Source of the DNA: Planctomycetota bacterium | GTDB lineage: Bacteria; Planctomycetota; UBA8108; SXIK01 | Reading direction: 5' to 3' | Length of the DNA: 64,000 nucleotides | Assembly: GCA_965223845.1 (NCBI GenBank) | Contig: CBDCXR010000004.1 | Location: 2,336,001-2,400,000, forward strand | In this document: positions 1 through 60,412 of the stretch, piece after piece | How positions within the stretch are numbered: position 1 is the stretch's first letter | Layout: every line of letters begins with the position of its first letter | Position numbers and translations under genes: made by a program | Notes under the pieces: generated by a model | The model's database searches: none | The model's input: the letters and a program-made list of their open reading frames with translations, nothing else | Told to the model about the DNA's origin: nothing

Positions 1-2597
1 TGCGAGGCGTGCCGCCGTCGCGCATGCCGCAGGTGAGTGGTGAGGTGACGCCGCCGCGGCTCAGCTCTCGACTGCGCGCTCCGGCCGGAGGAGGCTCCCT
101 CGGGTCCGCTCGGGGCGAACTCGATTGGATCGCCGCCAAAGCGATGGAGCGCGACCCCGATCGACGGTACGCCACCGCATCCGAGCTCGCGGCCGACGTG
201 GAGCGATTTCTCCGGCGCGAACCCGTCCTCGCCGGCCCACCGACCTTCGTCTATCGACTCCGGAAGACGATGCGCCGGCATCGCGGACCGATTGCGGCGG
301 TCGGCGCCGTCATGATCGCGCTCGCCGCCGGGCTCGTCGCGAGCCTCGTTCTCTACCTCGACACCGAGCGCGCACTCGACTCTGAACGCGAGGCGCTCGT
401 CATCTCCGAGGGACGACGCCTCACTGCCGAATCGGAGAGTTTGATCGGATCCGATCCTCGGCTTGCGCTCACGCGTGCGCTCGACGGCGTCGCTCGCCAC
501 CGAGACCTGCAATCGGTGAACGCGGTGTCATCCGCGCTCGCAGCGTGGATTCCGAACCGAACGCTTGCCGGGCACACCCAGACGATGGTCGAAGCCGCTG
601 CGTTCGACCACCGCGGTGAGCTTGTGATCACGGCGGGCTGGGACGGCACGGCGAGAGTGTGGGAGGCTGCGACCGGGAAGCTCCTCTCGACGCTCACGCA
701 CGTGGGCGGTGTCCGCGGAGCAGGTTTCAGTCCGGGCGGCGGGACGATCTACACCCTCGCCGGCGGGACTGCGTTCCTGTGGTCGATCGGCCGCGGCGCC
801 GAGCCAAAGCAGCGACCTCGCTTGCGGGCGGCGCTGGGAACGAGCGCCGTGACTTCCGTCGAGTTCAGCTTCGACGGCTCGCGGATCCTTACGGCGGAGA
901 CGAACGGTATGACGACCGTGTGGAACGCCCGCGATGCGACCAAGCTGCGCGAGATCGGAGGCGAGACGCGTCTCTCGTCGGCGCAGCTCAGCCCGCGCGG
1001 CGACCGCGTGCTCACGGTCGGGCGGCAGCGGCCGCCTCGGATGTACTCGGTCGAGACGGGAGAGTTGATCGCGTCGTACGGGCGCCGCGGCGCGTTCTTC
1101 GCCCGATTCAGCCCAAGCGGCGACCGGATCGTGTCGAGTCCGCTGTCAACGACGGTCGCGGTCGTTTGGGACGCACAGGAGGCGACGAGAGTCGCGGAGC
1201 TGCGCGGGCACACGAATCTCTTGACCGCAGCCGCGTTCAGCAGCGACGGTCGACAGCTCGTGACGGCCTCGCTCGATTGGACCGCGATCGTTTGGAACGC
1301 CAAGACGGGCGAGCGAATCGCCACTCTCCGGGGCCACGAGCTCGGCGTCCGATCGGCGTCGTTCGATCCGCGCGACGAGCTCGTGCTGACCGCGTCGATC
1401 GATGGTACGGCGCGCATCTGGAGCCCAGCGAACGGGGCTAGCTTGCTCGTCCTCAGGGGCCATTCGTCGAGTCTCAACTCGGCCTCGTTCGATTCCTCCG
1501 CGCGTCGCGTCGTCACCGCGGCGAAGGACGCTACGGCGCGTGTCTGGGACCTCGAGGCGGATTTCGGTCTCGCGGCGCGACAACACCACGGCGCCGAAAT
1601 CGAAACTCTGGCGTTCGCTCCCGGCGGCGATCGGCTTCTCACCGCCTCGCGCGATCGCACGGCGCAGATCTCGTGGACGAACGGAGGCGGAAAGCGGACC
1701 GTCTTGAGCGGACATCGATCGCACGTCTCCGACGGCCGGTTCAGTCCCGACGGTTCACGCGCGGCGACGGGGTCGCTCGATGGGACCGCCCGCCTGTGGG
1801 ACGTCGCCTCGGGTCGCGAGCTCCATCGCTGGTCTCACGTCGGGCCCGTTCACGCGGTTCGCTTCAGCCCCGACGGGGCGCGGCTCCTCACGGGCGCGGG
1901 GCGGGTCGCGAAGATCTGGGACGTGTCCTCGGGGAACGAGCTTCACTTGCTCAAAGGTCACCGCGGAGACGTGCACTCCGTCGGGTGGAGCCCAAACGGA
2001 CTCCGAATCCTGACCGCCTCGCGCGACAAAACGGCGCGCGTCTGGGATTCCGGCTCGGGCGACCTCATCCACCGCATGACGGCGCACGCTGAGAGGATTC
2101 TCGTCGCCAAATACACACCGGACGGTTCCCGGATCGTCACGGGATCCGGCGATCGAACCGCGCGCATCTGGGACGCGAGCTCTGGCGATGAACTGCTCTC
2201 ACTGCGAGGACACCGCGCCGGGATCGTCGACCTCGGGTTCAGCCCGAACGGTCGCCGGCTCGTCACGGCGAGCTACGACCGTGAGGCGCGAATCTGGAAC
2301 CTCGACAGCGGCGCCGAAGTCGCCCGACTTACGGGGCACGCCGATCGTGTCGTGTCGGCGCGATTCAGTCCGGATGGCGAGCTCGTCCTCACGGCATCGT
2401 GGGACAAGACCGCTCGTCTGTGGGATGCGGCCTCGGGACAAGAGATCGTCACGCTCAAGGGTCACGCCGGACGTCTCACGATCGCCGCCTTTGGCCCCGA
2501 CGGAAAGCGCATCGCGACGGGTTCCTGGGACCGGACGGCTCGAATCTGGCCCGTGGACCCCGTTGCTTTCAGCCGTCAGTACTCGATGACTCCGTGA
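1..2597 (+). CDS. Ser/Thr protein kinase (C-terminal remnant only) with TM helix and about 16 WD40 repeats; 5'-truncated by the window
   Basis: The frame is open from the window edge. ELDWIAAKAMERDPDRRYATASELAADVERFL is kinase subdomain XI. A hydrophobic helix (IAAVGAVMIALAAGLVASLVLY) follows, then 16 GH...FSPDG..TAS.D.TARxW repeats. Confidence 0.92.
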   Translation, partial: RGVPPSRMPQVSGEVTPPRLSSRLRAPAGGGSLGSARGELDWIAAKAMERDPDRRYATASELAADVERFLRREPVLAGPPTFVYRLRKTMRRHRGPIAAVGAVMIALAAGLVASLVLYLDTERALDSEREALVISEGRRLTAESESLIGSDPRLALTRALDGVARHRDLQSVNAVSSALAAWIPNRTLAGHTQTMVEAAAFDHRGELVITAGWDGTARVWEAATGKLLSTLTHVGGVRGAGFSPGGGTIYTLAGGTAFLWSIGRGAEPKQRPRLRAALGTSAVTSVEFSFDGSRILTAETNGMTTVWNARDATKLREIGGETRLSSAQLSPRGDRVLTVGRQRPPRMYSVETGELIASYGRRGAFFARFSPSGDRIVSSPLSTTVAVVWDAQEATRVAELRGHTNLLTAAAFSSDGRQLVTASLDWTAIVWNAKTGERIATLRGHELGVRSASFDPRDELVLTASIDGTARIWSPANGASLLVLRGHSSSLNSASFDSSARRVVTAAKDATARVWDLEADFGLAARQHHGAEIETLAFAPGGDRLLTASRDRTAQISWTNGGGKRTVLSGHRSHVSDGRFSPDGSRAATGSLDGTARLWDVASGRELHRWSHVGPVHAVRFSPDGARLLTGAGRVAKIWDVSSGNELHLLKGHRGDVHSVGWSPNGLRILTASRDKTARVWDSGSGDLIHRMTAHAERILVAKYTPDGSRIVTGSGDRTARIWDASSGDELLSLRGHRAGIVDLGFSPNGRRLVTASYDREARIWNLDSGAEVARLTGHADRVVSARFSPDGELVLTASWDKTARLWDAASGQEIVTLKGHAGRLTIAAFGPDGKRIATGSWDRTARIWPVDPVAFSRQYSMTP

Positions 2598-4789
2598 TCG
2601 GCGAAGTTTCTCCGGAAGCGATCTCTCCAGTTGCTCCCGTACTGATTGCCGATGTAGACGGCCATGTTTTCGACGAACTGCTCGTAGCTTTGAAGGTTCG
2701 AGAGACTCAGGGCGTAGAAGAGGGCGCGAAGGAAGATCATGCTGGCCGGAGGATCGCCCAAAGCGGCACGAAAGCCCGAACAGTCGTGGTCGCCTTCCAC
2801 GGCACACGTCCGGTAGTTCATGAATTTCCACTGCGCCTGCCAGAGCGAAGCCATGCGATATCCCGTGGAGACGGTGCAGGAATGACTGACGCTGGCGCTT
2901 GGACGGTCGAAAGCGAAATCGCCGACATCGCTCTCGCCCTCGCTGCAGCCTTCCCCGTGGACGGGAAAGGTCAAACCCAGCGCGTTAAACCAACACGGGT
3001 TATCGGTGGTCGAGAGGTCGTACGGGAGCGACGAATAGAGCTCGCGATAGAGTGCGAGGCGCACCAGATCCGCGATGGACTCCCGAAGCGGTAGAGCCTC
3101 GTCCGTTGTGTCCCAAACGCAGGTGTCCGAAACCAATCCCGAGCCGAAGATCCCGTGGCGCGAGTAGAGGTCGTAGTAGTGACCGATCTCGTGGAAGAGA
3201 TGTCCTTCGTCCCTCGAGCACATCGCGATCGCCGCCTGGGGAAACGACGCCGTCGGGTACGGGTGACCGATCTCGTCCCAGCCGTCGAAGTTGTACTCGT
3301 GGATCGCGGCGGGACTATCGGAGCAAGGATCGTTCTGAGGGGCAGCGTCGATGTTGCTCCAAATCGAAAGCGGAGCGGGGTCACCGCTTCCGAACGGAGC
3401 ATCGGGGTGGTGGTCCCACGGGAACGACTCCTTGAGCGGATCCAAGCGCCGAGTGGCGGCGGTCGCCTTCTGATAGATGTTTTGCGTCGTGAACGCGCGG
3501 ACCGAGTTCGGCTGCCGATTGAAGACTCCCCAGAGAAGCGGCGGGTCGCTGCCGGGGATGTACTCCGTCGCGGTGCGCACGATCGGAGGCGAGTCGTTGT
3601 CGCCGCGAAAGTCGTAAATCCCCACCCGGTCACTCCCCATCCGGAGGAGGCATCCGCGCCCACGCGGCGGCAACGCCTCGCAGCTGCCGTCGACGACCGA
3701 ACCGAGGGTCGGGTACGCGGCGGTTTCGCTCGTATCCGGGTTGTCCTCCACCTCGTAGGCGTGGACCGAGATCGCTCGGCGATCGAACGCGTCGAAATGC
3801 ACGAGCGAATTGTAGCCGAGGTACTCGCCGTCGGCTGCCGACACGAAGACGAGGGCGATGACTTGGCCGTCATCGAGAATCTCGCCGCGGTACGCGATCG
3901 CTTTCCGCTGAGGTACGGCGACGAGATCTACCTCGCCGACAGTGTGTTCCTCTGAAGGCCGGGGGCGCGCCTCGCGAAAGAGTTTGAGCCACGACAACCG
4001 GATGTTTCTCCTCGCAGACTGAAGGGGAATCTGTTCCTTGAGCCCCGAGTAGTCCGGCGCGGGATCGAGAACCGTGCCGGTGAAGGACATGGCACGGAAG
4101 CGGCCGTCTTCGAGGTTCTCGGCGATCGTAAGCGCAATCGAGTGCTCGGGGCCGACGACTTCATGCCCGCGGTAGGTCTGTCCGTAAAAGAAGATCGCGA
4201 GCTGATCGACGCGAAGGTCGCCTTCCGACGGTTGCAGGTGATCGAGATCGCGCGTCGATTCGATTCCGTTTAGCCCGAACTCGCTCGCGTTCGCGACGAT
4301 CCACTCCTTGAACGCGCTCTCGGCTCGCCCGGGTTCGAGCTCGAAGAGGCCGCTCGGATCCGTCTCGATGATGCCGTTCACGCTGCCGTCGGAATTGAGA
4401 GTGATTCTCTGCGACGGTGGCGGAGCGTCGTCGCAGAGGGGAAAGCTCTCGCAGGAAAGGAGATCGTCCGTCGGATCGAGCCCGCACTCGAACGGGCCCG
4501 GCGGAGACGGCAACGGGCCGTCGGAGAAGAGCCAATTGAGGAGCGCGATCGGGTCGATGATCGTGATGTCGCCGTCGTCGTGCGTGTCGAAAGCATCGAA
4601 GCACAGGGGATCCGGCCCGTCGGAGAAGAGCCAGTTGAGAATGAGCACGGGATCGCTGATGACGACGAGCCCATCGGCGTTCGCATCCCCGCGGATAAAG
4701 GGCGCGTCGCCGCCCGCGAGGCCTGCGTGAACCGCTCCGCTCGGGATGAGCGCGCAGAACAACACCGCGCGGAAACCGGACTTCGACAT
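2576..4789 (-). CDS. Secreted thermolysin/M4(M36)-like zinc metallopeptidase with N-terminal dockerin-like module
   Basis: Signal peptide (...GAVHA); FIRGDANADG double EF-hand module; FTP/PepSY-like propeptide (YGQTYRGHEV, FVSAADGEYL); HEIGH zinc motif plus LRESIAD (gluzincin ExxxD); GAAGGAGG Shine-Dalgarno upstream. Confidence 0.75.
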   Translation of the reverse strand: MSKSGFRAVLFCALIPSGAVHAGLAGGDAPFIRGDANADGLVVISDPVLILNWLFSDGPDPLCFDAFDTHDDGDITIIDPIALLNWLFSDGPLPSPPGPFECGLDPTDDLLSCESFPLCDDAPPPSQRITLNSDGSVNGIIETDPSGLFELEPGRAESAFKEWIVANASEFGLNGIESTRDLDHLQPSEGDLRVDQLAIFFYGQTYRGHEVVGPEHSIALTIAENLEDGRFRAMSFTGTVLDPAPDYSGLKEQIPLQSARRNIRLSWLKLFREARPRPSEEHTVGEVDLVAVPQRKAIAYRGEILDDGQVIALVFVSAADGEYLGYNSLVHFDAFDRRAISVHAYEVEDNPDTSETAAYPTLGSVVDGSCEALPPRGRGCLLRMGSDRVGIYDFRGDNDSPPIVRTATEYIPGSDPPLLWGVFNRQPNSVRAFTTQNIYQKATAATRRLDPLKESFPWDHHPDAPFGSGDPAPLSIWSNIDAAPQNDPCSDSPAAIHEYNFDGWDEIGHPYPTASFPQAAIAMCSRDEGHLFHEIGHYYDLYSRHGIFGSGLVSDTCVWDTTDEALPLRESIADLVRLALYRELYSSLPYDLSTTDNPCWFNALGLTFPVHGEGCSEGESDVGDFAFDRPSASVSHSCTVSTGYRMASLWQAQWKFMNYRTCAVEGDHDCSGFRAALGDPPASMIFLRALFYALSLSNLQSYEQFVENMAVYIGNQYGSNWRDRFRRNFADHGVIEY

Positions 4790-12182: not shown

Positions 12183-12755
12183 TCACGCGGAGCCCGAGTT
12201 CCCCGAGAGCCCCAGTCGTTCCGCTTGAGCGCGGATCGCGTCGATGCAGCGCTGGATGTGTTCCGTCAGGTCGACGCCGAGCTCGTCGATCCCCACTCGA
12301 ATGTCGTCCCGCGAGACCGCCGCGGCGAAGCTCTTGTCCTTGAGCTTCTTCTTCACCGACTTTGGCGTGAGATCAAGAATCCCGTTCGGACGCACCTTCG
12401 CGCACGCGACGAGGAATCCCGCGAGCTCGTCGACGGCGAAAAGAGCTTTTGCCATCGCCGTGTCGCGGGGAGTCCCCGTGTACTCCGCGTGCCCCAGAAT
12501 CGCCCGCAGGATCGGTTCTTCAACGCCGAGACTGCGAAGGTGTTCCACGCCGACGTAGGGATGCTCCTCCTCGGTCGGGTGACGCTCGTAGTCGAAATCG
12601 TGAAGCAAGCCGGCGACCGTCCAAGTTTCGATTTCTCCCGGCGCCTGAATCTCGGCGTAGGCCGCCATGCACGCCGCGACGGATTCCATGTGGACGCGAA
12701 GCGCCGGTGATGCGGTCCACTCCTCCATGAGCGCTCGCGCCGCCGTGGTGTTCAC
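12183..12755 (-). CDS. HD-domain metal-dependent phosphohydrolase (COG2316-like)
   Basis: The GTG start overlaps the RND stop (GTGA). Motifs are H...GLLHDFDYE, ILGH and LFAVDELAG, with a C-terminal KSVKKKLKDKSFAAAVSR. Confidence 0.88.
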   Translation of the reverse strand: MNTTAARALMEEWTASPALRVHMESVAACMAAYAEIQAPGEIETWTVAGLLHDFDYERHPTEEEHPYVGVEHLRSLGVEEPILRAILGHAEYTGTPRDTAMAKALFAVDELAGFLVACAKVRPNGILDLTPKSVKKKLKDKSFAAAVSRDDIRVGIDELGVDLTEHIQRCIDAIRAQAERLGLSGNSGSA

Positions 12756-15700
12756 GATCGCGGTCCCCCCTCGAGCGGCGGCGTGCCGCCGGCCTCGGCC
12801 CCGTTTAGGAGTTCTCCTCTCTCCGTCCAAGCAACGCTGCGGAGAAGTCGTCCGCAGAACGCCCGAGTGTCGTCGAGGACGGTGTAGAACACGGGGACCA
12901 TGTAGAGCGTAAAGAACGTCGAGGTCGCCAGTCCGCCGCTCAGAACCATCGCGAGGGGCTTGTAGTCGACCCCTTCTCCCTGCTGCGGAAACACGATCAG
13001 CGGTAGGAGGCCGAAGATCGTCGTGAGCGCCGTCATCCAAATCGGGCGAAATCGGATGCGGACGGCATCGGTGATCGCTGCGTCGCGCTCAACACCGCTG
13101 CGGCGAAGACGATTGATTTGATCCACGAGGACGATGGCATTGTTGACGACGATGCCGACGAGGATCAGGATTCCGATCATGCCGACGATGTCGAAGGGCG
13201 TCGACGTCACCCAGAGGAGCCCGATCGAGCCGAAGAGGGCGAAGGGGACGACGAAGAGGACGGAGAGCGGCAGAATGAACGATTCGAAGAGGACGCCCAT
13301 CAAGCAAAAGATGAGCGCGAACGCCATGAGCGCAGAAGTGGACGCGCTTTCTGCGTCTCCGTCGAACCCCCCGCGCTGGAGATCGAGCGTGAGCTCCACC
13401 GCCGGCGGAGTGGGATAGCGAGCGAGGTACGCGTCCAGCTTCTTCCGAAACTCGTCGCGCTTGATCCCCTTCTTGAGCCGCAGAGAGAACCCGAGCGTCA
13501 TCGTTCCGTCGAGCCGGTGGATCTCCCCCAGGCCTTCGGTAATCGCGTAGCTCGCGACATTCTCGAGGCGGACGAACTCGCCGTCCTCGCGAAAGACGCG
13601 CACGCGGTCGAGCGCACCGATCTCCTCCTTCACCGACTCGCCGTAGCGGACCCAAAACGGGTACTCCCGCTCCTCGACGGCGAAGTCGGGCAGCGGTGCC
13701 CCGCGGAGGGCCCACGCGACCGATTGAGATACCGTCGCCGTGTCGACGCCGTACTCCTGAGCGACTCGGCGGTGGATGTTCACTTCGATCTGATCGGAAT
13801 TCTCCCGGCGCCACTCGCTCACTTCGTCGATCTCCGGGAAGCGCTCGCGGTCCGCGAGATCGATCCTCAATCGACGACTCAGTTCGTCCATGGCGTCGAG
13901 ATCGTCCCCGCGAATGTACACGCGCTGGCGCTTCCCGCTCGTCTCGCGCATGAAATCCTCGAATCCGAAGCGGTACTCCACCCCCGGCAGCCGCGGTACG
14001 AGCGGACGAATCTCCGCGAAGAACTCGGTCTCCGTCTTTCGCACTTCCGGGCGGGGGAAGAGATTGAGCTCGCCGCGCGCCGAGTCGTACCAGGCGGTCA
14101 CCGATTGGATCCCGAGTCGCTCGCGTTGCTCGAGCAGCGCGGATTCGATTTTCCCGAAGATCTCGTCCGCCTCGCGAAGCGACGAGTTCTGCGGCAAGGT
14201 GACGTTGATCTCGAGTCGCCGGGGACCGTCCTGGATCGTCGCCTTTTCGAGACTCTCGTAGGCGACTTGCATGAGAAAGATCAGTCCGAAGGCCACGAGG
14301 ATGGTTTCGATTCGATGGCGGACGCAGAATCCGGTGAGGCGAGCGGAAACTCGATTGATCTTGGCCGGCTCGCCGACTCGTTCGCCGGTGAAGAAGCGAA
14401 GGAACCACGGCAGCCGAGACGATCGCGTGTCGGTCGTTTCCCCGGCCGCCGGCGCCCCGTTCTTTCGCGCGCGCCGCCACTGGAGTCGAAGCGCTCCCTG
14501 CGGGATGAACACGAGCGCGACGAGTAGCGAGGCGAGGACGCTCACGCACACGGGCTCGCCGATTTCGACCGCGATCACCTGAAAGCGCGGATCGCTGATG
14601 AAAAAGATCGGGAGGAACACCATCACGGTCGTCAGAGTCGCGAGGGTGACGGCGACGCCGACTCCGGTGACCCCGTGAATCGCCGCCGGACGCGGAGCGT
14701 AGCCGCGATCTTCGTGCCGGACGATGTTCTCGACGACGACGATCGAGTTGTCGACGAGCATTCCGATCGCGAGGGACATCCCCATGAGGCTCATGAGGTT
14801 GAACGTCCCCCCGCGAAAGTAGATCCAGATCACTGTGATCAAGAGCGAGAACGGGATCGCGAACGTGACGAGAAGAGTCATCCCCCACCGCCGAAAGAAG
14901 ACGTAGAGAACGGCGATCGCGAAGAGTCCTCCCCACATCGCGCTCCGGGCGAGCGAGTCGACGGAGAACCGGATCATCTCCCCCTGATCGAGCCACGTGT
15001 GGCGCTCCACCTTCGTGAGTCCGGGCACGGTGAGCCGAAGATCGTCCGCGAGGGTGTCCAGCGCGGCCTTGACGCGCTGGCACACCTCGACCGTGTTCGC
15101 GGATGACTCCTTGTGAATGACGAGCGACCGCGATCGGAATCCGTTCGCTCGCGCGAGCTGATCGCGCACCGCGTAGTTGTATTCGACCGCGGCGAAGTCA
15201 CGGACGCGCAAACGGTCGTCGGCGGGATAGTCGAGCACCGCGTCGAACGACCGAAAGCGATTGTCGAAGCGGACGAATAGTTCTTTCTCGCCTTGGCGAA
15301 TCGTGCCGGCGTTCACCGTTCGGTGGTCGGCGGACAGGCGGCCGATGAGACCACGGAGATCGACTCCGTAGGCGTCGACCTTTTCCGGATCGAGACCGAC
15401 CTCGACGAAGCGCTTGAGGATTCCCCATACGTTGACTCTTGCCACTCCGTCGACGGCCATCATGCGCTTAGTGATCACCTCGTCGAAGAGGTAGTCGACG
15501 TCGACCTTCTCTTCGTCGACGTCCATGCTGAGCGCGCACACGTAGATCGGCATGTCCCCTTCGCTCTGCCGCCAGAGAAAGTAGCGATCCACCCCGTCGA
15601 TCCACTCCGCTTTAGCGCGATCCATGCGGTCCCGAATCTCGGAGAGGACCACCTGGGGATCCGCGCTCGGCGAAAACTCGATCCGGATGCGGCAATCGCG

Positions 15701-15988
15701 CGAACTCGACGACGAGCCGACGCGACGGATTCCCTGCACCGTGCGAAGCTGAGCCTCGCAGGGCTTCGCGATGCGTTCCATCACTTCGCGCGGCGTGCCG
15801 TCCGGAACGGCGATGTAAAGAAAGCAACTCGGCGCGGTGAGGCCGTTCGGTACGAGTTGGAGCGGGATCTGGGGATACGCGACGAGACCGACGACGAGGA
15901 GTGCGGCGAAGGTCACGAATACCGCGATCGGGCGGTAGATCGTGGCGCGGATGAACGCCGAGGGTCGGGGTGCGGAGCCCGTCATCAC
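12752..15988 (-). CDS. RND efflux permease subunit (AcrB/AcrD/AcrF family)
   Basis: RPIAV N-terminus, GMLVDNSIVV (TM4), GIVVNNAIV (TM10) and RFRPIWMT (TM11); two periplasmic lobes. Confidence 0.95.
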   Translation of the reverse strand: MMTGSAPRPSAFIRATIYRPIAVFVTFAALLVVGLVAYPQIPLQLVPNGLTAPSCFLYIAVPDGTPREVMERIAKPCEAQLRTVQGIRRVGSSSSSRDCRIRIEFSPSADPQVVLSEIRDRMDRAKAEWIDGVDRYFLWRQSEGDMPIYVCALSMDVDEEKVDVDYLFDEVITKRMMAVDGVARVNVWGILKRFVEVGLDPEKVDAYGVDLRGLIGRLSADHRTVNAGTIRQGEKELFVRFDNRFRSFDAVLDYPADDRLRVRDFAAVEYNYAVRDQLARANGFRSRSLVIHKESSANTVEVCQRVKAALDTLADDLRLTVPGLTKVERHTWLDQGEMIRFSVDSLARSAMWGGLFAIAVLYVFFRRWGMTLLVTFAIPFSLLITVIWIYFRGGTFNLMSLMGMSLAIGMLVDNSIVVVENIVRHEDRGYAPRPAAIHGVTGVGVAVTLATLTTVMVFLPIFFISDPRFQVIAVEIGEPVCVSVLASLLVALVFIPQGALRLQWRRARKNGAPAAGETTDTRSSRLPWFLRFFTGERVGEPAKINRVSARLTGFCVRHRIETILVAFGLIFLMQVAYESLEKATIQDGPRRLEINVTLPQNSSLREADEIFGKIESALLEQRERLGIQSVTAWYDSARGELNLFPRPEVRKTETEFFAEIRPLVPRLPGVEYRFGFEDFMRETSGKRQRVYIRGDDLDAMDELSRRLRIDLADRERFPEIDEVSEWRRENSDQIEVNIHRRVAQEYGVDTATVSQSVAWALRGAPLPDFAVEEREYPFWVRYGESVKEEIGALDRVRVFREDGEFVRLENVASYAITEGLGEIHRLDGTMTLGFSLRLKKGIKRDEFRKKLDAYLARYPTPPAVELTLDLQRGGFDGDAESASTSALMAFALIFCLMGVLFESFILPLSVLFVVPFALFGSIGLLWVTSTPFDIVGMIGILILVGIVVNNAIVLVDQINRLRRSGVERDAAITDAVRIRFRPIWMTALTTIFGLLPLIVFPQQGEGVDYKPLAMVLSGGLATSTFFTLYMVPVFYTVLDDTRAFCGRLLRSVAWTERGELLNGAEAGGTPPLEGGPRS

Positions 15989-20957: not shown

Positions 20958-21717
20958 CGATCTTGTCCTTCAGAATCTCAAGGCGCGCGTCGTCTAGCTC
21001 GGGATTGAGCACAGTGTGAACTCGGTCGCGCTGTTTTCGCTCGACGAGAACGAGCCACTCCCGTCCTTCGCGTACGGTCGAACTCTTGAACTCGAGGAAC
21101 TTCTTACGGATGAGGAGAAGGGAGAGGAAGAATCGCAGTTCCTCGCGCTCGTTGTCCGCGACCGCTCCGGCTTTCTTCTCTTTGGAGACGTCTCCGGCCC
21201 CCGGGAGTTCCGTCGAAACTTCGCGCGTCTCGCCGACAGATTGTCGCTCCGCGTCGGTCGGGGGCTCGCCGTCGACCCGATCGGCGTCGTGTTGGGCCGC
21301 GTCCTGAGAATCGCCGCGTTCGGGCCCTTCCGCCGATTCGGTCTCCGGCGCGGCGCTTTCGCCCCCGGCAGGCTCGACCGTCGGTTCGATCGGCTCCCGG
21401 AGCCCGAGGAAGAACTCGAAGACGACTTGGGCGTCGAAGCGGACGCGGCGCGGCTCGTGCGACGGGGGAGGCGGTCGTCTCGTCCGCCAGTAGGCGAACA
21501 CCTCCTCGCCCGCACACCTTGGGCGCCCGCCGTCCGGGTCCTCACTTAAGTGACTCAACCAACAGGCATTACAGTAGTCTGAGCGACAGAACTCTTCGTC
21601 TTGCCAACGCACGGCAGAGAAATAGAGCTCGTCTGCTGCGATCTCCGCCTCGCAGAGCGCGCAGCGGTGGTCGGATGTCGAGATCGAGTACTTGGGATCT
21701 TTGACTGCGCTCACCAT
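20932..21717 (-). CDS. Conserved hypothetical protein with putative Zn finger
   Basis: CALC...RSDYCNACW...YW at the N-terminus, an acidic disordered insert, and C-terminal RFFLSLLLIRKKFL; GAGGAG SD. Confidence 0.75.
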   Translation of the reverse strand: MVSAVKDPKYSISTSDHRCALCEAEIAADELYFSAVRWQDEEFCRSDYCNACWLSHLSEDPDGGRPRCAGEEVFAYWRTRRPPPPSHEPRRVRFDAQVVFEFFLGLREPIEPTVEPAGGESAAPETESAEGPERGDSQDAAQHDADRVDGEPPTDAERQSVGETREVSTELPGAGDVSKEKKAGAVADNEREELRFFLSLLLIRKKFLEFKSSTVREGREWLVLVERKQRDRVHTVLNPELDDARLEILKDKIGDLLQMRI

Positions 21718-28265: not shown

Positions 28266-31200
28266 ATGATGGTGCGTGGACGGTTTTCCTATCTCGTCGT
28301 GTTCGCGTCGTGTATCGCGTGGACGTCTCCGGCCCCAGCGGTCGTGATCTCGGAGATTCACTACCATCCTCCCGTCGGTGAGGAATCCCTCGAATTCGTC
28401 GAGGTGACGAACGAGTGGAACACTCCCATCGATCTCGGCGGCTACGCGTTCAATGACGGCATCCGCTTCGTGTTTCCGGACGGCACGATTCTCGAGAGCG
28501 GAGAGACGCTCGTGGTCGCAGCGGACGCCGACGCCATTCGCCGCCACTACGGCATCGAAAACGTCGTGGGCAACTTCGAGGGGCGCCTCGACGGCGGTGG
28601 TGAACGCATCACTCTCGTCAACTACGCCGCCGTCGAGGTGGATTCGGTCCGCTACGACGACGACGGCAAATGGCCCGTTGGAGCTGACGGCTCGGGGCAC
28701 AGCCTCGTCCTCCGACGCATCCGCTCGGATTCCTCCGAGCCGGAGAACTGGACGCAAAGTCCCGAGCTCGGCGGGAATCCCGGCCGACGCAACTTTCCCG
28801 AGGATCGACCGCCGGATTACGACGTGACCGTGTTCATCGACGTCGGCGAGGAATGGAAATACCGCGAAGGGCGCGAGGCGTTCTCGGATCCTCCGGAGGC
28901 GTGGACCACGCCCGAATTCGACGACGGGGCGTGGGAGAGCGGACCGTCCGGGTTCGGCTTCGGAGACGACGACGACAACACAGTGTTCGAAACAATGCGC
29001 GGCGAGTTCAGCTCGATCGCGATTCGAAAGCGCATCGAGCTCACCGAAGAGGAGGTGAATGCGCCCGGCGAGTTCCTCTTTTCGGTCCTCTACGACGATG
29101 GGTTCTGCGCGTTCGTGAATGGAGAGCAAGTCACCGGCGCGAATTGCCCCGAGGAGATCAAATGGGACTCCTCGGCCGACGGGTCTCACGAAGCGCGAGA
29201 AGCAGAGCTGTTTCCCATTCCCCGCGAAGCGCTCGTCGCGGGACTGAACACGATCGCGATCGTTGGATACAACCGCAGCATCGGCGGGAACGATTTCTCG
29301 CTCGCGCCGCAGTTCATTCACCGCGTGCTCGTTTCCGAGGATGCCCCCCCGCCGCTCGAGGGCGGGTTCAACGAGCTCTTCCGCGGCGACGACAACGAGG
29401 GCGGCTGGGTGGAGCTCTTCAACGGCGGAGACGAAGAGTACGATCTCGCCGGATTCCGCATCACGACCTCACCGGACCTCACCGGTGTCGTGCTCGGCGA
29501 CGACGCGCGGCTCTCGCCGGGCGAGTTCCTCGTCGTCGACGCCGAAGGGACCGAGCTCGATCTGAGCACCGAGATCGTTCAGTTCTTCCTCATCGCCGAG
29601 ACCGGCCACGTCGCTGCCGCAGCCGCGTTCGACGAGAGCCCTCCGGAAGCGGCCGGATTGGCGACGTATTCCGAAGCTCGCTATCCCGACGGCGGCCGGA
29701 TCGGATGGATCACCCCTTCGCCGACTCGCGGCGCCGCGAACGTCGTTCCGCGCGAAGAGCGCATCGTGATCAACGAGATCTTCTACCACCCACCGGAGGA
29801 CCGCGTCGGCGAGTTCATCGAGCTCTACAATATCTCAGACGAAGCGGTCGACCTCGGCGGCTTCCGCTTCACGCGCGGCATCGATCTCGAGTTTCCGCCG
29901 GGGACGTCGATCGGTCCCGGCGAGTACATCGTCGCCGCGGAGGACGCCCAAATCCTCGCCGATCATTACGACGTCCGTACGCCGTACGAGTACGAGGGGC
30001 GGCTCGCCGACCGCGGAGAGAACGTCCGTCTCGTCGACGCCCTCGGCAACCTCGTCGATGAAGTCCGCTATCACGACGGCGGTCGGTGGTCTCTCTGGGC
30101 GGACGGCCGTGGCTCGAGCCTCGAGCTCGCCGATCCGCGCAGCGACAACGACTTCGCCGGCGCATGGCGCGCGAGCGACGAGAGCGAAAAGGCGAGCTGG
30201 GAAGAGCTCTCCTACACGGTGGACGAATACGTTCCGGCGGGCGAATCGGAACTCCACATACTCCTCGTCGAACGCGGGATCTGTCACATCGACGACGTTT
30301 CGATCACGCGGGCCGAAGGCGGCGACAACGTCATTCGGAATCCCGGCTTCGAAGAGGACACGGCCGGTTGGCGCATCGAGGGGACTCACGTCGACAGCGT
30401 GCGCATAACGGAGGACCGCCACTCCGGTGAAGCAAGCCTCCGACTCGTCGCAACCGGGAAGGGTGACAGCACCTGCAATCGCATCGAGACCGACACATCG
30501 CCGCGACTCACGCGCGGTGCGTACGACGTCTCGCTGTGGGCTCGCTGGCAAGCGGGGAGCAGCCTCCTCGTTCTTCACGGCGAGTTCGCCCCGGGTCCGT
30601 GGTTCGGGACGCGCGACGTCAATATGTCGAACAACAGTCTCGGCGCGCGGCTCCGGCTGACCGTACCCCGAAATCTCGGGACTCCGGGAGCGGAGAATAC
30701 GGCGCGCCGAATCCTCCGCGAGACGACTGGCGACGACAACCTCGGACCGACGATCGACTCGGTCGTCCACTCACCGCCATCGCCGGCCGAGCTCGAACGG
30801 GTTCGAGTCACGGCGCGGATCGCGGATCCCGACGGGATCGCGATGGCGCGCGTCGTCTTTCGCCTCGACTCGAGCCAAGCGGAAGATCAGTTCGCGGAGC
30901 TCTTCGACGACGGTGAGCACGGAGACGGCGCACCGGGCGACGGACTCTACGCGGCCACGCTGCCCGGATTCGATACCCGCGCGCGCGTCGTCTTTGCGAT
31001 CGAAGCCGAAGACACTAAGGGCGCAGTCACCTCCTTTCCGGGCGAGTCGCCCTCGTGGTGCACCTTTCGCGTCGACGGCCGGCGACCGACGGCGCTTCAA
31101 ATCATTCAAAGCGCCGACAGCGTCCGGGAGCTCGCGCGCCGTCCACTCCATTCGAACGATCTCGTCGATGCGACCGTCGTCTTTGACGACAGCGAGGTCT

Positions 31201-32705
31201 ACTACAATGTCGGACTCCGCTACCGGGGAAGTCCCTGGGGACGGCCGCAGCGGGCGAGCTACCGCGTCCGCTTCGCAAAGGATCGCCCACTCGGTGAACG
31301 GAAGGGAGCGATCAACGTCTCGAACCGCGACACCAACGACGGCGTCGCGTACGGCCTCATCGGCCGCGCCGGCGTTCCCGGATCCCCCGCGCCCGTTCCC
31401 GACTACGATTACATGCCGACTTTCATCAACGGCGCTTCGTTCCAGGTTCCGGGCGTCTTCGATCCGGTCGACCGAGACTTCATCGAGAAGTGGTACGGCG
31501 GAGATGCAGCCGACGGTGCGGTTGTCCTCAAGGGAAACGGACGCCTCCGCTTCAGCGACGCCTGTCAGCGAACGGGCTGGGACGAAGCGACGCTGCTTCA
31601 CATGGATACGTCGTCCGAAAACTATCGATTCTATTGGTTCCATTCGGTCAACCAGACCGCCGACCAGTGGGAACCGTTCATGGAGCTCACGCGAGTCCTC
31701 GATTCGCGCGAGACTCCGGAGGAAGAATTCGAGGAGAAGGTGGGGACCGTGCTCGACACGGAGTCGTTCTTTCGCGTTCTCGGGTCGCGCATCCTGATGA
31801 ACGATGGCGACGCACTGTTCGTTGGAAACGGCCACAACGGCTACATGACTTGGAATCCCGTCACCGGTCTCTGGGGACACCTCGCCTTCGACATGGGGGG
31901 CGGACTCCGAAACGGCAACGTGTCGCTCCTCGGGGTCCGTGATCGATCGGTGCGGCGACTTCTCAACAACCCAAGGCAGCAGCGTCTCTACTACCGGGTG
32001 ATCGATGACATCGTGAGTCGCTACTGGTCCGCGAGTGCCGGTCCGTGGCTCACCGCTCTGCAAAGCTCTCCGGCGCGCCGCGGCACGACTCTGCTCGCCA
32101 TCGTGCGCCAGTCGTCCGACCGGGCGAAGGGTGCGCTCCGCCGCGTCGTCAACGTCGACTTCGAGATTCTCACCGGCGATGGCGAACCGATCGTGAGCGA
32201 GGAGCCGACCATCCTGCTCACCGGCCAGGCGTCGGTCCAGGTCACCACGTTCCTCGTCAGCCGAAACGATGGCGACCCCATCGAGTTCGATCCGACGTTT
32301 ACGACGCGCGGACGTCCGAACCGCTGGGAACACGAGTTCGCGCTGCCGGATCCCGCGAATCGATTCACGTTCATCGGACTCAGCGACTCCGGCGAGCTTC
32401 TCGCGTCGACGACCGTCGAGGTGAGCTCGATGGCGGCGCCGCAATTCGTCCGCGGCGATGTCGACGGAAACGGTTCGCTCAACGTGAGCGATCCGATTCG
32501 TACGCTCCTCCATCTCTTCGTCGGCCAGGAGATCGCCTGTCGGGACGCGGCCGACGTCGACGACGATGAGTCGCTCAATATCAGCGACGCAATCCTCCTT
32601 CTCGAGTACATCTTCCGGGACGGCACGCCACCGGCGCCGCCCTTCCCGGAGCTCGGCCCCGACTCGGAAGGAGAAGACGCGCTCGGCTGCTCGAGCGGGG
32701 TCTGA
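28266..32705 (+). CDS. Large secreted lamin-tail-domain / CotH-kinase-like protein with C-terminal dockerin-like module
   Basis: Signal peptide; about 3 LTD repeats (ISEIHYHP..EFVE, NEL...WVELFN, INEIFYHP..EFIELYN); jelly-roll and CBM4/9-like (NPGFE) domains; LFDDG.HGDG.PGDG.Y motif; CotH-like VGLRYRG; FVRGDVDGNG module. Confidence 0.88.
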   Translation: MMVRGRFSYLVVFASCIAWTSPAPAVVISEIHYHPPVGEESLEFVEVTNEWNTPIDLGGYAFNDGIRFVFPDGTILESGETLVVAADADAIRRHYGIENVVGNFEGRLDGGGERITLVNYAAVEVDSVRYDDDGKWPVGADGSGHSLVLRRIRSDSSEPENWTQSPELGGNPGRRNFPEDRPPDYDVTVFIDVGEEWKYREGREAFSDPPEAWTTPEFDDGAWESGPSGFGFGDDDDNTVFETMRGEFSSIAIRKRIELTEEEVNAPGEFLFSVLYDDGFCAFVNGEQVTGANCPEEIKWDSSADGSHEAREAELFPIPREALVAGLNTIAIVGYNRSIGGNDFSLAPQFIHRVLVSEDAPPPLEGGFNELFRGDDNEGGWVELFNGGDEEYDLAGFRITTSPDLTGVVLGDDARLSPGEFLVVDAEGTELDLSTEIVQFFLIAETGHVAAAAAFDESPPEAAGLATYSEARYPDGGRIGWITPSPTRGAANVVPREERIVINEIFYHPPEDRVGEFIELYNISDEAVDLGGFRFTRGIDLEFPPGTSIGPGEYIVAAEDAQILADHYDVRTPYEYEGRLADRGENVRLVDALGNLVDEVRYHDGGRWSLWADGRGSSLELADPRSDNDFAGAWRASDESEKASWEELSYTVDEYVPAGESELHILLVERGICHIDDVSITRAEGGDNVIRNPGFEEDTAGWRIEGTHVDSVRITEDRHSGEASLRLVATGKGDSTCNRIETDTSPRLTRGAYDVSLWARWQAGSSLLVLHGEFAPGPWFGTRDVNMSNNSLGARLRLTVPRNLGTPGAENTARRILRETTGDDNLGPTIDSVVHSPPSPAELERVRVTARIADPDGIAMARVVFRLDSSQAEDQFAELFDDGEHGDGAPGDGLYAATLPGFDTRARVVFAIEAEDTKGAVTSFPGESPSWCTFRVDGRRPTALQIIQSADSVRELARRPLHSNDLVDATVVFDDSEVYYNVGLRYRGSPWGRPQRASYRVRFAKDRPLGERKGAINVSNRDTNDGVAYGLIGRAGVPGSPAPVPDYDYMPTFINGASFQVPGVFDPVDRDFIEKWYGGDAADGAVVLKGNGRLRFSDACQRTGWDEATLLHMDTSSENYRFYWFHSVNQTADQWEPFMELTRVLDSRETPEEEFEEKVGTVLDTESFFRVLGSRILMNDGDALFVGNGHNGYMTWNPVTGLWGHLAFDMGGGLRNGNVSLLGVRDRSVRRLLNNPRQQRLYYRVIDDIVSRYWSASAGPWLTALQSSPARRGTTLLAIVRQSSDRAKGALRRVVNVDFEILTGDGEPIVSEEPTILLTGQASVQVTTFLVSRNDGDPIEFDPTFTTRGRPNRWEHEFALPDPANRFTFIGLSDSGELLASTTVEVSSMAAPQFVRGDVDGNGSLNVSDPIRTLLHLFVGQEIACRDAADVDDDESLNISDAILLLEYIFRDGTPPAPPFPELGPDSEGEDALGCSSGV

Positions 32706-46094: not shown

Positions 46095-46976
<882 letters not shown>

Positions 46977-56545: not shown

Positions 56546-56676
56546 GCGACGCCTCCTCTGCGGGGGGTGAAGAAAGTCGACGATCGATCCTTCGGAAAAC
56601 GAGATTTACGCTCGACGGCCGCGGTATTGTACCCCGGAGAGCTCGGGGGACCGGAACCGGAGCCCGGAAGCCGCGA

Positions 56677-57927: not shown

Positions 57928-58018
57928 GGATTCCTGGCGCGAAGTCAACCGGCGGCGCGCGGAACGCCGACCGCCGGAGACGGTCGGCGAGATCGGAGCG
58001 CCGCGAAGAGAATCGGGG

Positions 58019-58027
58019 AGCATACCA
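58019..58027 (-). promoter_or_regulatory. Extended -10 for lysA; leader contains a 9-bp hairpin
   Basis: Minus strand TGgTATGCT. CGCCGACCG-N7-CGGTCGGCG at about 57965-57989. Confidence 0.45.
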
Positions 58028-58468
58028 CACGGGGCGCGCGGAGTCCCGGGAACCGGATTCCGGGCAAGGAGCCCCGGCGGTCGCCCCACTCGGCGTGAGA
58101 TTCGCGCGAGGGCGCCGGGCGGCGACGGCGGATCGTGACCGCGACCTCGACGGCCACTCGGGCCGTCGAATCCCGCAGTCATCGCGGTGCCGAACACCGG
58201 CTCTTCGAGAAGACGTCGAGTTCGTTCGTTCGACGTTAGCCGGCCGTCGTACCCCGATTTGGGCCGCCGCCTCACGCCCCGGTCTCTCTCCGTGCGTTCG
58301 CCACGTCCGAAAGTGACCTGGACGCTCGTCCCCCAACGCGTAAGATGGACTCGGTGATGTTCTATCCGGCGTCATCGCCCGCGCGTCGCCACGAGGCGAA
58401 CCGACGACGCCCTCTTCGGCTAGTGTCGATAGCTTCCTCGATTCGATAGTCTTCCGAAACACGTCGGC

Positions 58469-60412
58469 GTGTTCGTGGGAGATCGTATGCGCCCCATGAG
58501 GGTACTCTTCGTAGTTCTCTTGGCGATTGCGCCGACCGCGATGACTCGCGCGGCGTCCTCGTTTTCGCTAGGCGACGGGACGGCGGCGGTCGGCGCGAGC
58601 GCGACGATCGAGCTGAGCCTGTCCTCGGACGAACCCGTTCAGGGTCTGACCGCCGCCATCGAATGGAACGGTGCCGAGCTCGAGGCCGTCGCGCTGACTC
58701 CGGCCGATGTTCTCGCGGGCGCCGATACGGTCGTCACCCGGCTCGAGGGCGACTACGCCGTTCTGGGTGTGATCGTCGATGACGACGGCGTGGGCGATCC
58801 GGCGCTTCCGATCGGCGATCAGGTTCTCGCTGCGATCGAGGTTCGCTGCCGCGGCGCGGTCGAAACCACGGAGCTGCGCTTCGCTGACGGTAAGTACGCC
58901 GTAGCCGAAGGTGGCCCGCTCCTCGACAACCTCGTCGTCGTCGAAGGTCAAACGATCGACCGAGAGACCGGCCTCGGGCTGTCGGCAGGTTCTGTCACCT
59001 GCGGCGAAGGAGTGACGCGTCTCTCGTTCGACGATCGCGGTCGAGAATCGAAGGCCGGCGTTTTGCTGTCGAACACCGGACCGGTCGAAGGCTACACCGT
59101 CGCCGTCTGCCACGCTCCGTCCGATCTGAGTCTACGTTCCATCGAAGTCGGTGCGGCGGCCATCGCGGTCGGCGTCGAGTTCTCGGCGGCGTCGGTCTTC
59201 GATGGCGGCGGGACGCTGGCGGTGATTTTCGATATCGATGCGCCGTTTCAGGGTCAAGCGCTCGCCGTCGGGGATCGCCACGAGATCGCCGTGTTCGAGT
59301 ACGAGTGCCTCTCTCCCGGCGCTCCGACGAGACTCGAGTTTTGTGATGCAATTCTGGGCGAACCTGCGCTCGCGAACACGGTGGTCATCGCCGGACTCTC
59401 CGTGGCTCCAGTTCGGAGCGGCATCACGTACGAATGCGCGCCTGCCGACCCGTGCGGACCGGAGATTTGCGGCAACGGAGTCGACGACGATTGCGACGGA
59501 TCGATCGACGAGGAAGACTGCGCGTCCGTCGCGTTTTCCTGCGGCCCGCGGAAGGCCGCGGACATCGGCCAGCCGATTCTCGGCACGGTCGGAAGCGACG
59601 TCGAGCTCTGCTTCTTCCTCGAGACGAGGGAGGATCACGCGGTCGGTGAGCTGCCGCAGTTCGATCACGTCCAGGGCTTCTCGATGGGGGTCGCTCACCC
59701 CTGCTCCCTCACGGCCGGCAAGGACTTCGACATCTCGGGAACGATCCTCGAAGCGATCGGCGCGGAATTCGTATCTCTCGAAACGGACGCCGTCGCGACG
59801 GACGGCGACGGTTGCGAGCTCGTCATCGGAGTACTCGTCGATGCGCTCCCGCCGTTCGATGGAGCGACGATCCCGCCCCTCGACGGCCCACAGCGAATGG
59901 GTTGCCTCACGATGACGATCGCCGACGACGAGGCGCTCTGCGGCACTCCGCTCGCGGTAGAGTTCGTCGACGGCGTGAATATCGCGGGTCAGGCACCGGT
60001 GAAGAATCTCGTCTCGGTCGAGAACACGGCACGCGCGCCCGCGCTGATCAGCTGTGAAATCGAACCTGTGAGTCGCGGCCGTTTCTACCGGGGAGACTGC
60101 GATTTCAGCGGCGGGGAAATCGGGCTCGCCCTCAACATCAACGACGCCGGGGCGATGATTAGCTTCTTCTTCCATGATCCCGCCGTGCGCTTCGAGCCCC
60201 CGTGCCTCGACGCGTGCGACTGCAATGACGATGGTCGCCTCGATCTCGCCGATACGACCTGCGTCCTTCGGTTTCTGTTTCGGAGTGGTCCGATCCCGCC
60301 GCCACCCGGCCCGGGAGTCGAACGGGTCGACGGAGGATTCGCCGACACGCGCGCCGGAATCGATCCGACCTTCGATCTCCTCGACTGCGTAGAAGGCAGT
60401 CGCTGCGATTGA
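58469..60412 (+). CDS. Secreted scaffoldin-like protein: three cohesin-like domains, a Cys/Asp metal-binding repeat and a C-terminal dockerin-like module
   Basis: Signal peptide (ATG 58487 or 58496 are alternative starts); three related beta-rich units (PVQGLTAAI, PVEGYTVAV, HVQGFSMGV); EICGNGVDDDCDGSIDE; FYRGDCD...DCNDDGRLDLAD...DPT.D.L.C. Confidence 0.72.
   Translation: MFVGDRMRPMRVLFVVLLAIAPTAMTRAASSFSLGDGTAAVGASATIELSLSSDEPVQGLTAAIEWNGAELEAVALTPADVLAGADTVVTRLEGDYAVLGVIVDDDGVGDPALPIGDQVLAAIEVRCRGAVETTELRFADGKYAVAEGGPLLDNLVVVEGQTIDRETGLGLSAGSVTCGEGVTRLSFDDRGRESKAGVLLSNTGPVEGYTVAVCHAPSDLSLRSIEVGAAAIAVGVEFSAASVFDGGGTLAVIFDIDAPFQGQALAVGDRHEIAVFEYECLSPGAPTRLEFCDAILGEPALANTVVIAGLSVAPVRSGITYECAPADPCGPEICGNGVDDDCDGSIDEEDCASVAFSCGPRKAADIGQPILGTVGSDVELCFFLETREDHAVGELPQFDHVQGFSMGVAHPCSLTAGKDFDISGTILEAIGAEFVSLETDAVATDGDGCELVIGVLVDALPPFDGATIPPLDGPQRMGCLTMTIADDEALCGTPLAVEFVDGVNIAGQAPVKNLVSVENTARAPALISCEIEPVSRGRFYRGDCDFSGGEIGLALNINDAGAMISFFFHDPAVRFEPPCLDACDCNDDGRLDLADTTCVLRFLFRSGPIPPPPGPGVERVDGGFADTRAGIDPTFDLLDCVEGSRCD

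Follow-up and report, generated by a model that had tools for sequence, protein, structure and literature searches.

Three dockerin-bearing secreted proteins of a Planctomycetota bacterium as candidate parts of a cohesin-dockerin assembly system not tied to cellulose

Cohesin/dockerin systems outside the cellulosome were reportedly surveyed by Peer et al. in 2009. Among the closest described systems is the 'planctosome' of freshwater Planctomycetes (Andrei et al., ISME J 2019; PMC6461901), which the article text puts forward as a sequence-based hypothesis of a peptide-degrading surface complex. In the model as that text presents it, an LTD protein bears a cohesin and acts as the anchor, a Doc-HYR-Coh protein (Doc, dockerin; Coh, cohesin) is the adaptor, and the peptidases belong to families M12B and M14. 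The planctosome has been cited by later papers, and non-cellulosomal dockerin-like modules have, going by the reference list of the same article (PMC6461901), been on record since 2009. A dockerin expansion is also noted in the text on kelp-associated Planctomycetes (PMC5264255). Here we analyze a stretch of 64,000 nucleotides, hereafter the window, from a Planctomycetota bacterium (GenBank assembly GCA_965223845.1, contig CBDCXR010000004.1, positions 2,336,001 to 2,400,000), in which a metalloprotease-like protein (P0001), an LTD/CotH protein (P0002) and a scaffoldin-like protein (P0003) carry one and the same dockerin-like module, the last together with three cohesin-like domains. We consider it likely, on the grounds of homology and domain order, that the three are components of a cohesin-dockerin assembly system which occurs widely in Planctomycetota and has no tie to cellulose.

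Outside this phylum, scaffoldin-like proteins with a dockerin, up to five cohesins and non-cellulase cargo are described for ANME archaea (PMC9012536), and a cellulosome-like complex with peptidases for Cloacimonadota (PMC8542988), in both cases as far as the article texts go. Even the cellulosome of Clostridium thermocellum has components other than glycoside hydrolases (GHs): the table of cellulosomal proteins in PMC6083626 lists Cthe_0239 (LTD, LTD, Fn3, CotH), CseP (CotH), the serpins PinA/PinB and the subtilisin-like protease CprA.

Compared with the published description of the planctosome, the window likewise has planctomycete cohesin and dockerin modules without a cellulose link, an LTD protein and a candidate zinc peptidase (PMC6461901). 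The domain repertoire (cohesin/dockerin, LTD, Zn peptidase, no cellulases) accordingly fits that model, whereas the architectures and the peptidase family differ: the LTD/CotH protein of the window bears a dockerin, which would make it cargo, the scaffoldin-like protein is of the type Coh3-Doc, and the protease, with its FTP propeptide and HExxH motif, belongs to a rare family. The domain set of P0002 comes near that of Cthe_0239, judged by the listed domains alone, and C. thermocellum has cellulosomal proteases too, while the dockerin subfamily and the host lineage are different. With the archaeal and Cloacimonadota systems, as their articles describe them, the window shares multi-cohesin, single-dockerin scaffoldin-like proteins, non-cellulase cargo and a function that is inferred or left open. 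The calls made there are generic Pfam calls, whereas the Planctomycetota set adds (Doc-Coh)n arrays, a scaffoldin-specific dockerin clade and a Cys- and Pro-bearing dockerin tail. Within article texts, supplements being outside the scope, we found no description of this tail, of that clade, of the family with three cohesin-like domains and one dockerin, or of regular (Doc-Coh)n arrays. The preliminary description of this DNA, which had proposed a cellulosome-like system carrying a protease and a CotH/LTD protein in place of GHs, is in this light partly supported: the domains were correctly assigned and the reading built on them is a reasonable one, but the hypothesis had been published before.

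The clostridial type I pair (CipA cohesin and enzyme dockerins; 1ohz, 2ccl, 1daq/2mte, 4fl4 and 3kcp were matched) is a further point of comparison. Common to both are two symmetric 22-residue repeats of Ca loop and helix, and cohesin homologues repeated on a non-catalytic secreted protein that ends in a dockerin (P0003). Different here are the lineage, which has an outer membrane, the absence of any carbohydrate-binding module (CBM), S-layer homology (SLH) domain or sortase anchor from what was found, cargo that is almost never a GH, a conserved Pro-rich dockerin tail with a probable disulfide, and window sequences that score below the Pfam cut-offs. A cellulosome in the strict sense, with carbohydrate-active enzymes as cargo, a CBM-bearing scaffoldin and an SLH or sortase anchor, is not what we see, since neither the three carriers nor the remainder of the window contain a GH, CBM or SLH domain, and one GH2-like match was the yield from 69 carrier open reading frames (ORFs) of other loci (see below).

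The shared module is 86-109 amino acids (aa) long in the three carriers. Its alignment has 26 invariant columns, which reproduce the motif on which the preliminary description had based its claim of one module in three unlinked secreted proteins, and the placement of all three copies was confirmed exactly. Pairwise BLASTP comparisons gave E-values of 4e-17, 5e-9 and 2e-8. By searching the 810 six-frame ORFs of the window (at least 40 aa) with a hidden Markov model (HMM) of the three modules, we recovered the three carriers only (E 4e-45 to 2e-38); no fourth copy was found, the next-best match having E = 2.3. Two EF-hand-like loop-helix repeats are evident in every copy, the first ~60 residues being the dockerin part. 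In the consensus of 228 instances, FxRGDxNxDGxxDISDAxxxLxxLFxGG..P.C.DAADVNDDGxxDIxDAIxLLxxLFxGGPxPPxPFPxCGxDPTxDxLxC, these repeats are followed by a Pro-rich, Cys-bearing tail of ~30 residues. The three-module profile matched 12 chains of solved structures at E<=1e-3 (best 1e-6 to 2.8e-6). Ten of these are cellulosomal dockerin chains, and the top two matches are to a chain deposited as 'Serine protease', which aligns as two dockerin-like stretches. All matches are confined to profile positions 1-60, so that the tail is covered by no solved dockerin. Many relatives of the module carry the Pfam Dockerin_1 (PF00404) annotation or pass a scan with that model, and the NCBI name attached to them is 'dockerin type I repeat-containing protein'. 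Judged by this homology, the shared module is a dockerin homologue with a lineage-typical Pro-rich tail, as had been proposed.

Loop positions 1, 3, 5 and 12, which we take to be the EF-hand ligand positions, are filled in 89-100% of instances in each class of module. Departures within the window loops are a His at position 3 of loop 2 in P0001 and a Glu at position 6 of loop 2 in P0002. Repeats 1 and 2 are identical at 12 of 22 positions in P0001, 11/22 in P0002 and 7/22 in P0003, and the same tendency is found on the larger scale, with a mean symmetry of 10.8/22 in cargo-type against 8.8/22 in scaffoldin-borne modules (Mann-Whitney p = 8e-7). The RGD within the motif was also considered as an integrin-type signal and rejected: its Gly-Asp starts Ca loop 1, and the counterpart in repeat 2 reads 'AAD'.

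The tail appears to be tied to the rest of the module by two cysteines, C33 between the loops and C83 in the tail. Both are present in 511 of the 548 full-length instances, C33 stands alone in 27 and C83 alone in none, and ten instances lack the two, a co-occurrence that points to a probable disulfide stapling the tail back onto the dockerin. A precedent of a kind is the 'intramolecular clasp' formed by Trp-Pro stacking of the termini in the ScaA dockerin of Ruminococcus flavefaciens, as described in the text of PMC3821032. The suggested fold-back of the tail would be a covalent version of this clasp, and the P0003 dockerin also stands apart, as a separate clade, from the cargo dockerins; what differs is that the extension here is 25-30 aa long and disulfide-stapled, the staple being deduced from Cys co-occurrence alone. 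NCBIfam returned no model for the module tail, for the family of P0003 or for that of P0001, and gave only a CelK dockerin end and a weak acidic-disulfide repeat.

The three beta-rich domains of P0003 are mutually homologous (hhalign probability 98.2-99.9%), and all of them align with the middle domain of dockerin-X-dockerin proteins of ~365-440 aa (97.1-98.8%; individual values are found in Table 1). A profile of 20 of these Doc-Coh-Doc proteins in turn matches, with its X domain, the solved cohesins 3l8q_A (E = 1.3e-7), 5lxv_A (3.5e-7) and 3kcp_A (1.6e-6), followed by many further solved cohesins down to 1e-3. Individually, the Doc-Coh-Doc proteins P0021 and P0027 lie above the Pfam Cohesin cut-off and P0017 below it. 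The family of P0003 comprised 133 matches, 106 of which were aligned (alignment A3). Pfam Cohesin (PF00963) was matched at E<=0.01 by ten of the 74 orthologues in A3 that were scanned (best 4.8e-7), and Dockerin_1 by 21 of them. By this chain of profile homology, domains 1-3 of P0003 can be regarded as cohesin homologues at the family level; the earlier label of three cohesin-like domains stands in that sense and not as an assignment of fold. The acidic, Cys-rich linker between domains 2 and 3 gave weak matches to a MopE motif (E 0.0034), an NCBIfam acidic double-disulfide repeat (E 0.0083) and the teneurin Cys-rich region.

Cohesin homologues and the module are regularly combined in other proteins as well. 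We annotated 378 fetched proteins with local HMMs, a set biased to high module scores and to relatives of P0003. With C for a cohesin-like domain and D for a dockerin, the architectures were CCCD (the type of P0003) in 110 proteins, DCD in 61, D in 39, DD in 28, DCDCD in 27, DCCD in 19 and CCCCCD in six. Tandem dockerin arrays reach 7-8 copies. Several poly-dockerin proteins (P0004-P0007, P0247, P0250, P0260, P0261 and others) consist of 5-12 matched module stretches and little else, and such a protein might serve as a cross-linker. Three further proteins apparently encoded on the 7.87-Mb contig of the window are P0011 (DCDCDCD), P0014 (DCDCD) and P0039 (DCD), which with P0001 counted brings this contig to at least six apparent carriers and at least nine cohesin-like domains. 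The preliminary expectation of many carriers in the genome is borne out by these and by the tens of thousands of matches in public data (see below).

The dockerins fall into recognizable classes. Those borne by scaffoldin-like proteins (C+D) have C6 in 95%, C37 in 95% and a loop-1 insertion in 78% of cases, features found in at most 10% of any other class. In a tree of 294 sampled modules, 45 of the 46 scaffoldin-borne dockerins fell in one clade of 48 (support 0.888), while the nearest neighbors of the P0001 and P0002 modules were of cargo type. The dockerins of cellulosomal scaffoldins bind a separate class of cohesins. The separate scaffoldin-borne clade resembles these, which leads us to propose two levels of assembly; the placement of the P0003 dockerin in its own clade suggests at least two binding specificities.

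In terms of numbers, the three-sequence profile retrieved 674 proteins from a word-indexed database. Among 1.84 billion cluster representatives, the module profile had 39,292 matches at E<=1e-3 (the weak end of which surely includes ordinary dockerins), 21,704 at <=1e-10 and 422 at <=1e-30. In contigs with one genome per species, at least 454 stretches were confirmed out of 597 candidates. The titles of the best 80 loci name a planctomycete (beginning with Planctomycet) in 69 cases, an unnamed bacterium in five and another lineage in six, i.e. Woesearchaeota (2), Parcubacteria (1), Nanoarchaeota (1), Eisenbacteria (1) and Bacillota (1). The 80 loci, among which the genome of the window itself is not found, are all from metagenome-assembled genomes (MAGs), so mis-binning is possible. 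Module contigs L009, L023, L052, L064 and L076 were binned as Parcubacteria, Woesearchaeota, Nanoarchaeota or Bacillota MAGs. Given that the module is 49-52% identical to that of the window, as read individually for L009, L023 and L052, these seem more likely to be mis-binned planctomycete DNA than products of gene transfer.

The best 80 loci contain 101 carrier ORFs, with two or three carriers in 14 of the loci, and 69 of the ORFs were scanned for cargo with Pfam, the remaining 32 being set aside as short or to stay within a limit on total residues. A diverse assortment of domains was identified: FG-GAP in eight ORFs, DUF1800 in four, CotH, LTD, PKD, Laminin_G_3 and beta-helix in three each, Malectin and P_proprotein in two each, and an M4+FTP peptidase, an S8 peptidase, Kazal inhibitors and a GH2-like domain (25.7 bits) in one each. 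Six ORFs had a dockerin only and 26 had no match. The cargo of the module is mostly not GHs. The wording 'instead of glycoside hydrolases' in the preliminary description is thereby sustained as to content, and what it implied of novelty was overstated in view of the texts of PMC6461901 and PMC6083626. As to position, the module is C-terminal in 29, N-terminal in nine and internal in one of the 39 fetched single-module, cohesin-free proteins, and the corresponding 85 locus ORFs divide into 65 with a C-terminal, 14 with an N-terminal and three with an internal module, along with three of undetermined position.

Doc-Coh-Doc genes adjoin cargo genes at four loci (L030, L048, L069 and L075), and CCCD genes are not the usual clustered type. 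At these loci, all in Planctomycetota MAGs, the Doc-Coh-Doc gene is divergent to a gene for a large dockerin-bearing protein, and L048, L069 and L075 have an extra dockerin ORF on the other flank. Pfam scans at L030 and L048 identified a proprotein-convertase P-domain in the large protein, echoing the P-domain protein of the planctosome model as described.

In P0002, one of the two candidate cargo proteins of the window, LTD is present in three stretches (Pfam, 2.9e-41) and CotH at residues 984-1248 (1.5e-7), in agreement with the original reading. By homology P0002 is a secreted LTD/CotH protein with a cargo-type dockerin.

P0001 had no Pfam family at E<=0.1, and its catalytic part alone had no match in PDB. 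From 8000 scored candidates out of a 5.8-billion-sequence collection, just seven homologues of its non-dockerin part were obtained, all without Pfam annotation. Within this family of eight, residues D563, E564 and E570, downstream of the HEIGH motif, are invariant (8/8), and an HExxH with conserved acidic residues 26-33 residues downstream fits the spacing of a gluzincin-type site. The family profile (A5) matches residues 77-229, i.e. the propeptide, of the thermolysin precursor 5a3y_A (E = 0.002), and Pfam FTP was matched in six of the eight members (best 3.6e-5), P0001 not among them. Neither Peptidase_M4 / M4_C nor any solved protease catalytic domain was matched by the family, and when P0001 was aligned by hhalign with a true dockerin-bearing M4 ORF (L015), the propeptide alone aligned, with a probability of 11.9%. 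The family thus resembles the thermolysin family (M4) in its FTP-type propeptide and in an HExxH with downstream acidic residues, and differs from it in that P0001 lacks a Peptidase_M4 or M4_C match; the name 'M4-like' given to it earlier suits the propeptide (5a3y_A, FTP) and not the catalytic domain. The catalytic part is best seen as a putative divergent HExxH domain that matched no known family, and the proteins of the P0001 type may represent metalloproteases of a family not described so far, with a propeptide of FTP type. P0001 holds 15 Cys. With 146 bits against the module HMM it is nonetheless not among the best 120 of the 674 database matches, where the window proteins P0002 and P0003 do appear (as P0048 and P0043); its gene may be uncalled in the source annotation, or it may have been lost at the word filter.

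The window as such has an ordinary chromosome character, with 64-68% G+C and a housekeeping context represented by DnaE, ribosomal protein S1, Clp protease, cytidylate kinase and PlsY/GpsA. Further genes encode two RND pumps, Ser/Thr kinases, a WD40 protein and a sulfatase fragment. P0001, P0002 and P0003 each have one N-terminal hydrophobic segment and no second one, which is consistent with secretion and with no membrane anchor. The positions of all features are given in Table 1.

Table 1. Positions in the 64,000-nucleotide window of the three module carriers, their parts and selected neighboring genes.
Feature	Position	Strand	Remarks
P0001, 737 aa: signal peptide, N-terminal dockerin module, thermolysin-type (FTP-like) propeptide, divergent HExxH metalloprotease-like domain (putative)	2576..4789	-	
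P0001 dockerin module, residues 30-120, right after signal peptide; cargo type	4430..4702	-	C34, C73, C84, C90 (module numbering)
P0001 non-dockerin part, residues 121-737	2576..4429	-	
P0001 FTP/PepSY-like propeptide region, about residues 180-330	3800..4252	-	approximate, mapped from profile positions
P0001 HEIGH, residues 533-537, putative zinc-binding/catalytic motif	3179..3193	-	the same in each of the eight members of the family
P0002, 1479 aa: signal peptide, 3 LTD stretches, choice-of-anchor-X motif, CotH kinase-like domain, C-terminal dockerin module	28266..32705	+	
P0002 dockerin module, residues 1394-1479, C-terminus; cargo type, two-Cys form	32445..32702	+	
P0003, 647 aa: signal peptide, three cohesin-like domains and one dockerin (CCCD, scaffoldin-like)	58469..60412	+	
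P0003 cohesin-like domain 1, residues 28-182	58550..59014	+	hhalign vs domain 2 99.9%, vs Doc-Coh-Doc cohesin 97.1%
P0003 cohesin-like domain 2, residues 186-326	59024..59446	+	hhalign vs Doc-Coh-Doc cohesin 98.8%, E 8.6e-17
P0003 acidic Cys-rich linker, residues 326-356, between domains 2 and 3	59444..59536	+	
P0003 cohesin-like domain 3, residues 356-537, longer, more divergent	59534..60079	+	hhalign vs Doc-Coh-Doc cohesin 97.9%, vs domain 1 98.2%, vs domain 2 98.7%
P0003 dockerin module, residues 539-647, C-terminus; scaffoldin-borne subtype: loop-1 insertion, extra conserved Cys, longer tail	60083..60409	+	
Efflux cluster: adjacent RND-type (AcrB family) pump genes (1078 and 1229 aa), HlyD-type gene, 261-aa ORF	12752-21717	-	
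M20-family peptidase	60531-61763	+	directly downstream of P0003
AbgT-family transporter	61933-63531	+	follows the M20-family peptidase

Directly downstream of P0003 lie genes for an M20-family peptidase and an AbgT-family transporter, a pair reminiscent of the abg genes of Escherichia coli for uptake and cleavage of a dipeptide-like compound. The 118-bp gap 3' of P0003 contains one promoter-like site and no terminator, which is uninformative on an operon link, and a scan of 58200-62000 found no terminator-like site, a result that says little either way. The adjacency may be fortuitous or may point to peptide use. Elsewhere, behind the two adjacent RND pump genes, come a membrane-fusion gene of HlyD type and an ORF of 261 aa that matches no family. 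This is an ordinary efflux cluster with no relation to the dockerin finding.

Several observations weigh against placing the three proteins in one cohesin-dockerin system. Pfam Cohesin had no match in P0003 at E<=0.1, nor in domain 2 alone at E<=1, and the family profile A3 by itself reached solved cohesins only at E 0.05-0.33. When a cohesin-only profile was made from 20 domains (alignment A7; the three window domains and the cohesin-like domains of the loci), its top PDB match was a spirochaete FlgE fragment (3.1e-4), against 4.2e-4 for the ScaB cohesin; out of 20 PDB matches, five were FlgE chains and 15 came from cellulosomal cohesin entries. The FlgE hook-protein fragments in question (6ndx, 6ndw, 6ndt and 6ndv) match with E about 3e-4 over ~109 positions, either by chance or through a common beta-sandwich. 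On the dockerin side, the modules of P0001 and P0002 reach 14.8 and 13.3 bits with Pfam Dockerin_1, the cut-off being 22.9, and that of P0003 has no match in the Pfam scan. None of the seven homologues of the P0001 catalytic part has a dockerin. We saw neither an SLH domain or sortase signal nor a lipobox or membrane anchor on any of the window components. The carrier genes are unlinked, with gaps of ~23.5 and 26 kb, location on both strands and housekeeping genes in between, and nothing beyond the shared module ties the three functionally. Among the 101 locus ORFs, 85 have a dockerin only, 15 have a cohesin as well and one is DD; since dockerin-only ORFs far exceed those with cohesins, many dockerins may have other partners. 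Finally, in article texts, leaving supplements aside, we found no experimentally shown cohesin-dockerin pair from Planctomycetota, in keeping with the preliminary remark that dockerins are annotated in this phylum without a demonstrated partner.

If the three proteins do belong to such a system, we envisage the following order of events. After export, Ca2+ would fold the dockerins, and the disulfide between C33 and C83 would staple the tail back onto the helices. The cargo-type dockerins of P0001 and P0002 could then plug into the cohesins of P0003-like scaffoldins, or into those of the (Doc-Coh)n proteins apparently encoded on the same contig, while the divergent dockerin of P0003 would plug into a different cohesin, giving an assembly of two levels. 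The product would be an extracellular complex of several proteins, with proteases and CotH-type proteins among them along with many beta-propeller or lectin domains of adhesin-like character, and it might help the cell to attach to material of proteinaceous or other non-cellulosic kind and to break it down.

The alternative that survives best concerns the three genes rather than the system: these may be unrelated members of a huge family, P0003 not binding P0001 or P0002, with a coincidental co-occurrence and with the true partners elsewhere in the genome. We hold this to be quite possible, if short of probable. It agrees with the unlinked position of the genes among housekeeping genes and with the size of the family, with the at least three additional carriers that apparently bring their own cohesins on the same contig, and with the clustered carriers of other genomes, which mostly are Doc-Coh-Doc genes beside cargo and not CCCD genes. 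Nothing directly opposes it. P0003 is, on the other hand, the sole cohesin carrier in the window, and the dockerins of P0001 and P0002 are of the general cargo type, so that a pairing is possible.

The module could also be a dockerin by descent that mostly does not bind cohesins, and act instead as a tag that fixes secreted proteins, in a Ca-dependent manner, to a glycan, the outer membrane or a proteinaceous cell coat, proteins of the P0003 type being a minority; the preliminary description had named anchoring as an alternative. The excess of dockerin-only ORFs, the mostly C-terminal position of single modules and the lack of a scaffoldin anchor among the window components would all suit such a tag, and the conserved Pro-rich Cys tail, lying outside all solved-dockerin matches, could be its real binding element. 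We nevertheless find it rather unlikely. Cohesin homologues alternate regularly with the module in the same polypeptides (the DCD, DCDCD and CCCD proteins enumerated above), which is hard to explain unless the two domains interact, and cohesin homologues are apparently present on the same contig as well. In true cellulosomes, too, dockerins as a rule outnumber cohesins, and cargo modules retain the two-fold symmetry that is typical of cohesin-binding dockerins.

That the module is a secretion or sorting signal, in the manner of the C-terminal domain of the type IX secretion system or of PEP-CTERM and possibly removed, agrees with its lineage-restricted and mostly C-terminal occurrence on signal-peptide proteins but is highly improbable, as it is N-terminal in P0001 and in a good part of the single-module proteins and ORFs counted above, internal in a few, repeated in tandem and alternating with cohesins in others, and homologous to Ca-binding dockerins, with no sorting-machine gene found nearby in the window.

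Returning to the cohesin-dockerin assembly that we favor, a bolder version of it can be formulated for the phylum. A (Doc-Coh)n chain contains one dockerin more than it has cohesins (n+1 against n), so that, unlike classical scaffoldins, such chains could polymerize or branch mutually. Together with Coh3-Doc proteins of the P0003 type they might form a self-assembling, Ca-dependent and disulfide-hardened extracellular lattice with at least two orthogonal specificities, that would bear proteases, CotH-type proteins and adhesin-like domains by the hundred, i.e. a general surface-display or matrix system for a phylum without SLH or sortase anchoring. We offer this as a speculation with a small chance of being right.

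As it stands, the window provides a compact test set, with three cohesin homologues and a special dockerin on one protein and two candidate cargo proteins with ordinary dockerins, and the module, which occurs in recognizable classes, ranks among the most common domains found outside the cell in this phylum. Should the binding prove false, many of the 'dockerin type I' annotations in this phylum would be misleading as a guide to function. Should it prove true, new orthogonal and possibly disulfide-stabilized cohesin-dockerin pairs would become available for protein engineering, and the system would explain how planctomycetes organize secreted proteases, CotH proteins and adhesin-like proteins on particles or prey.

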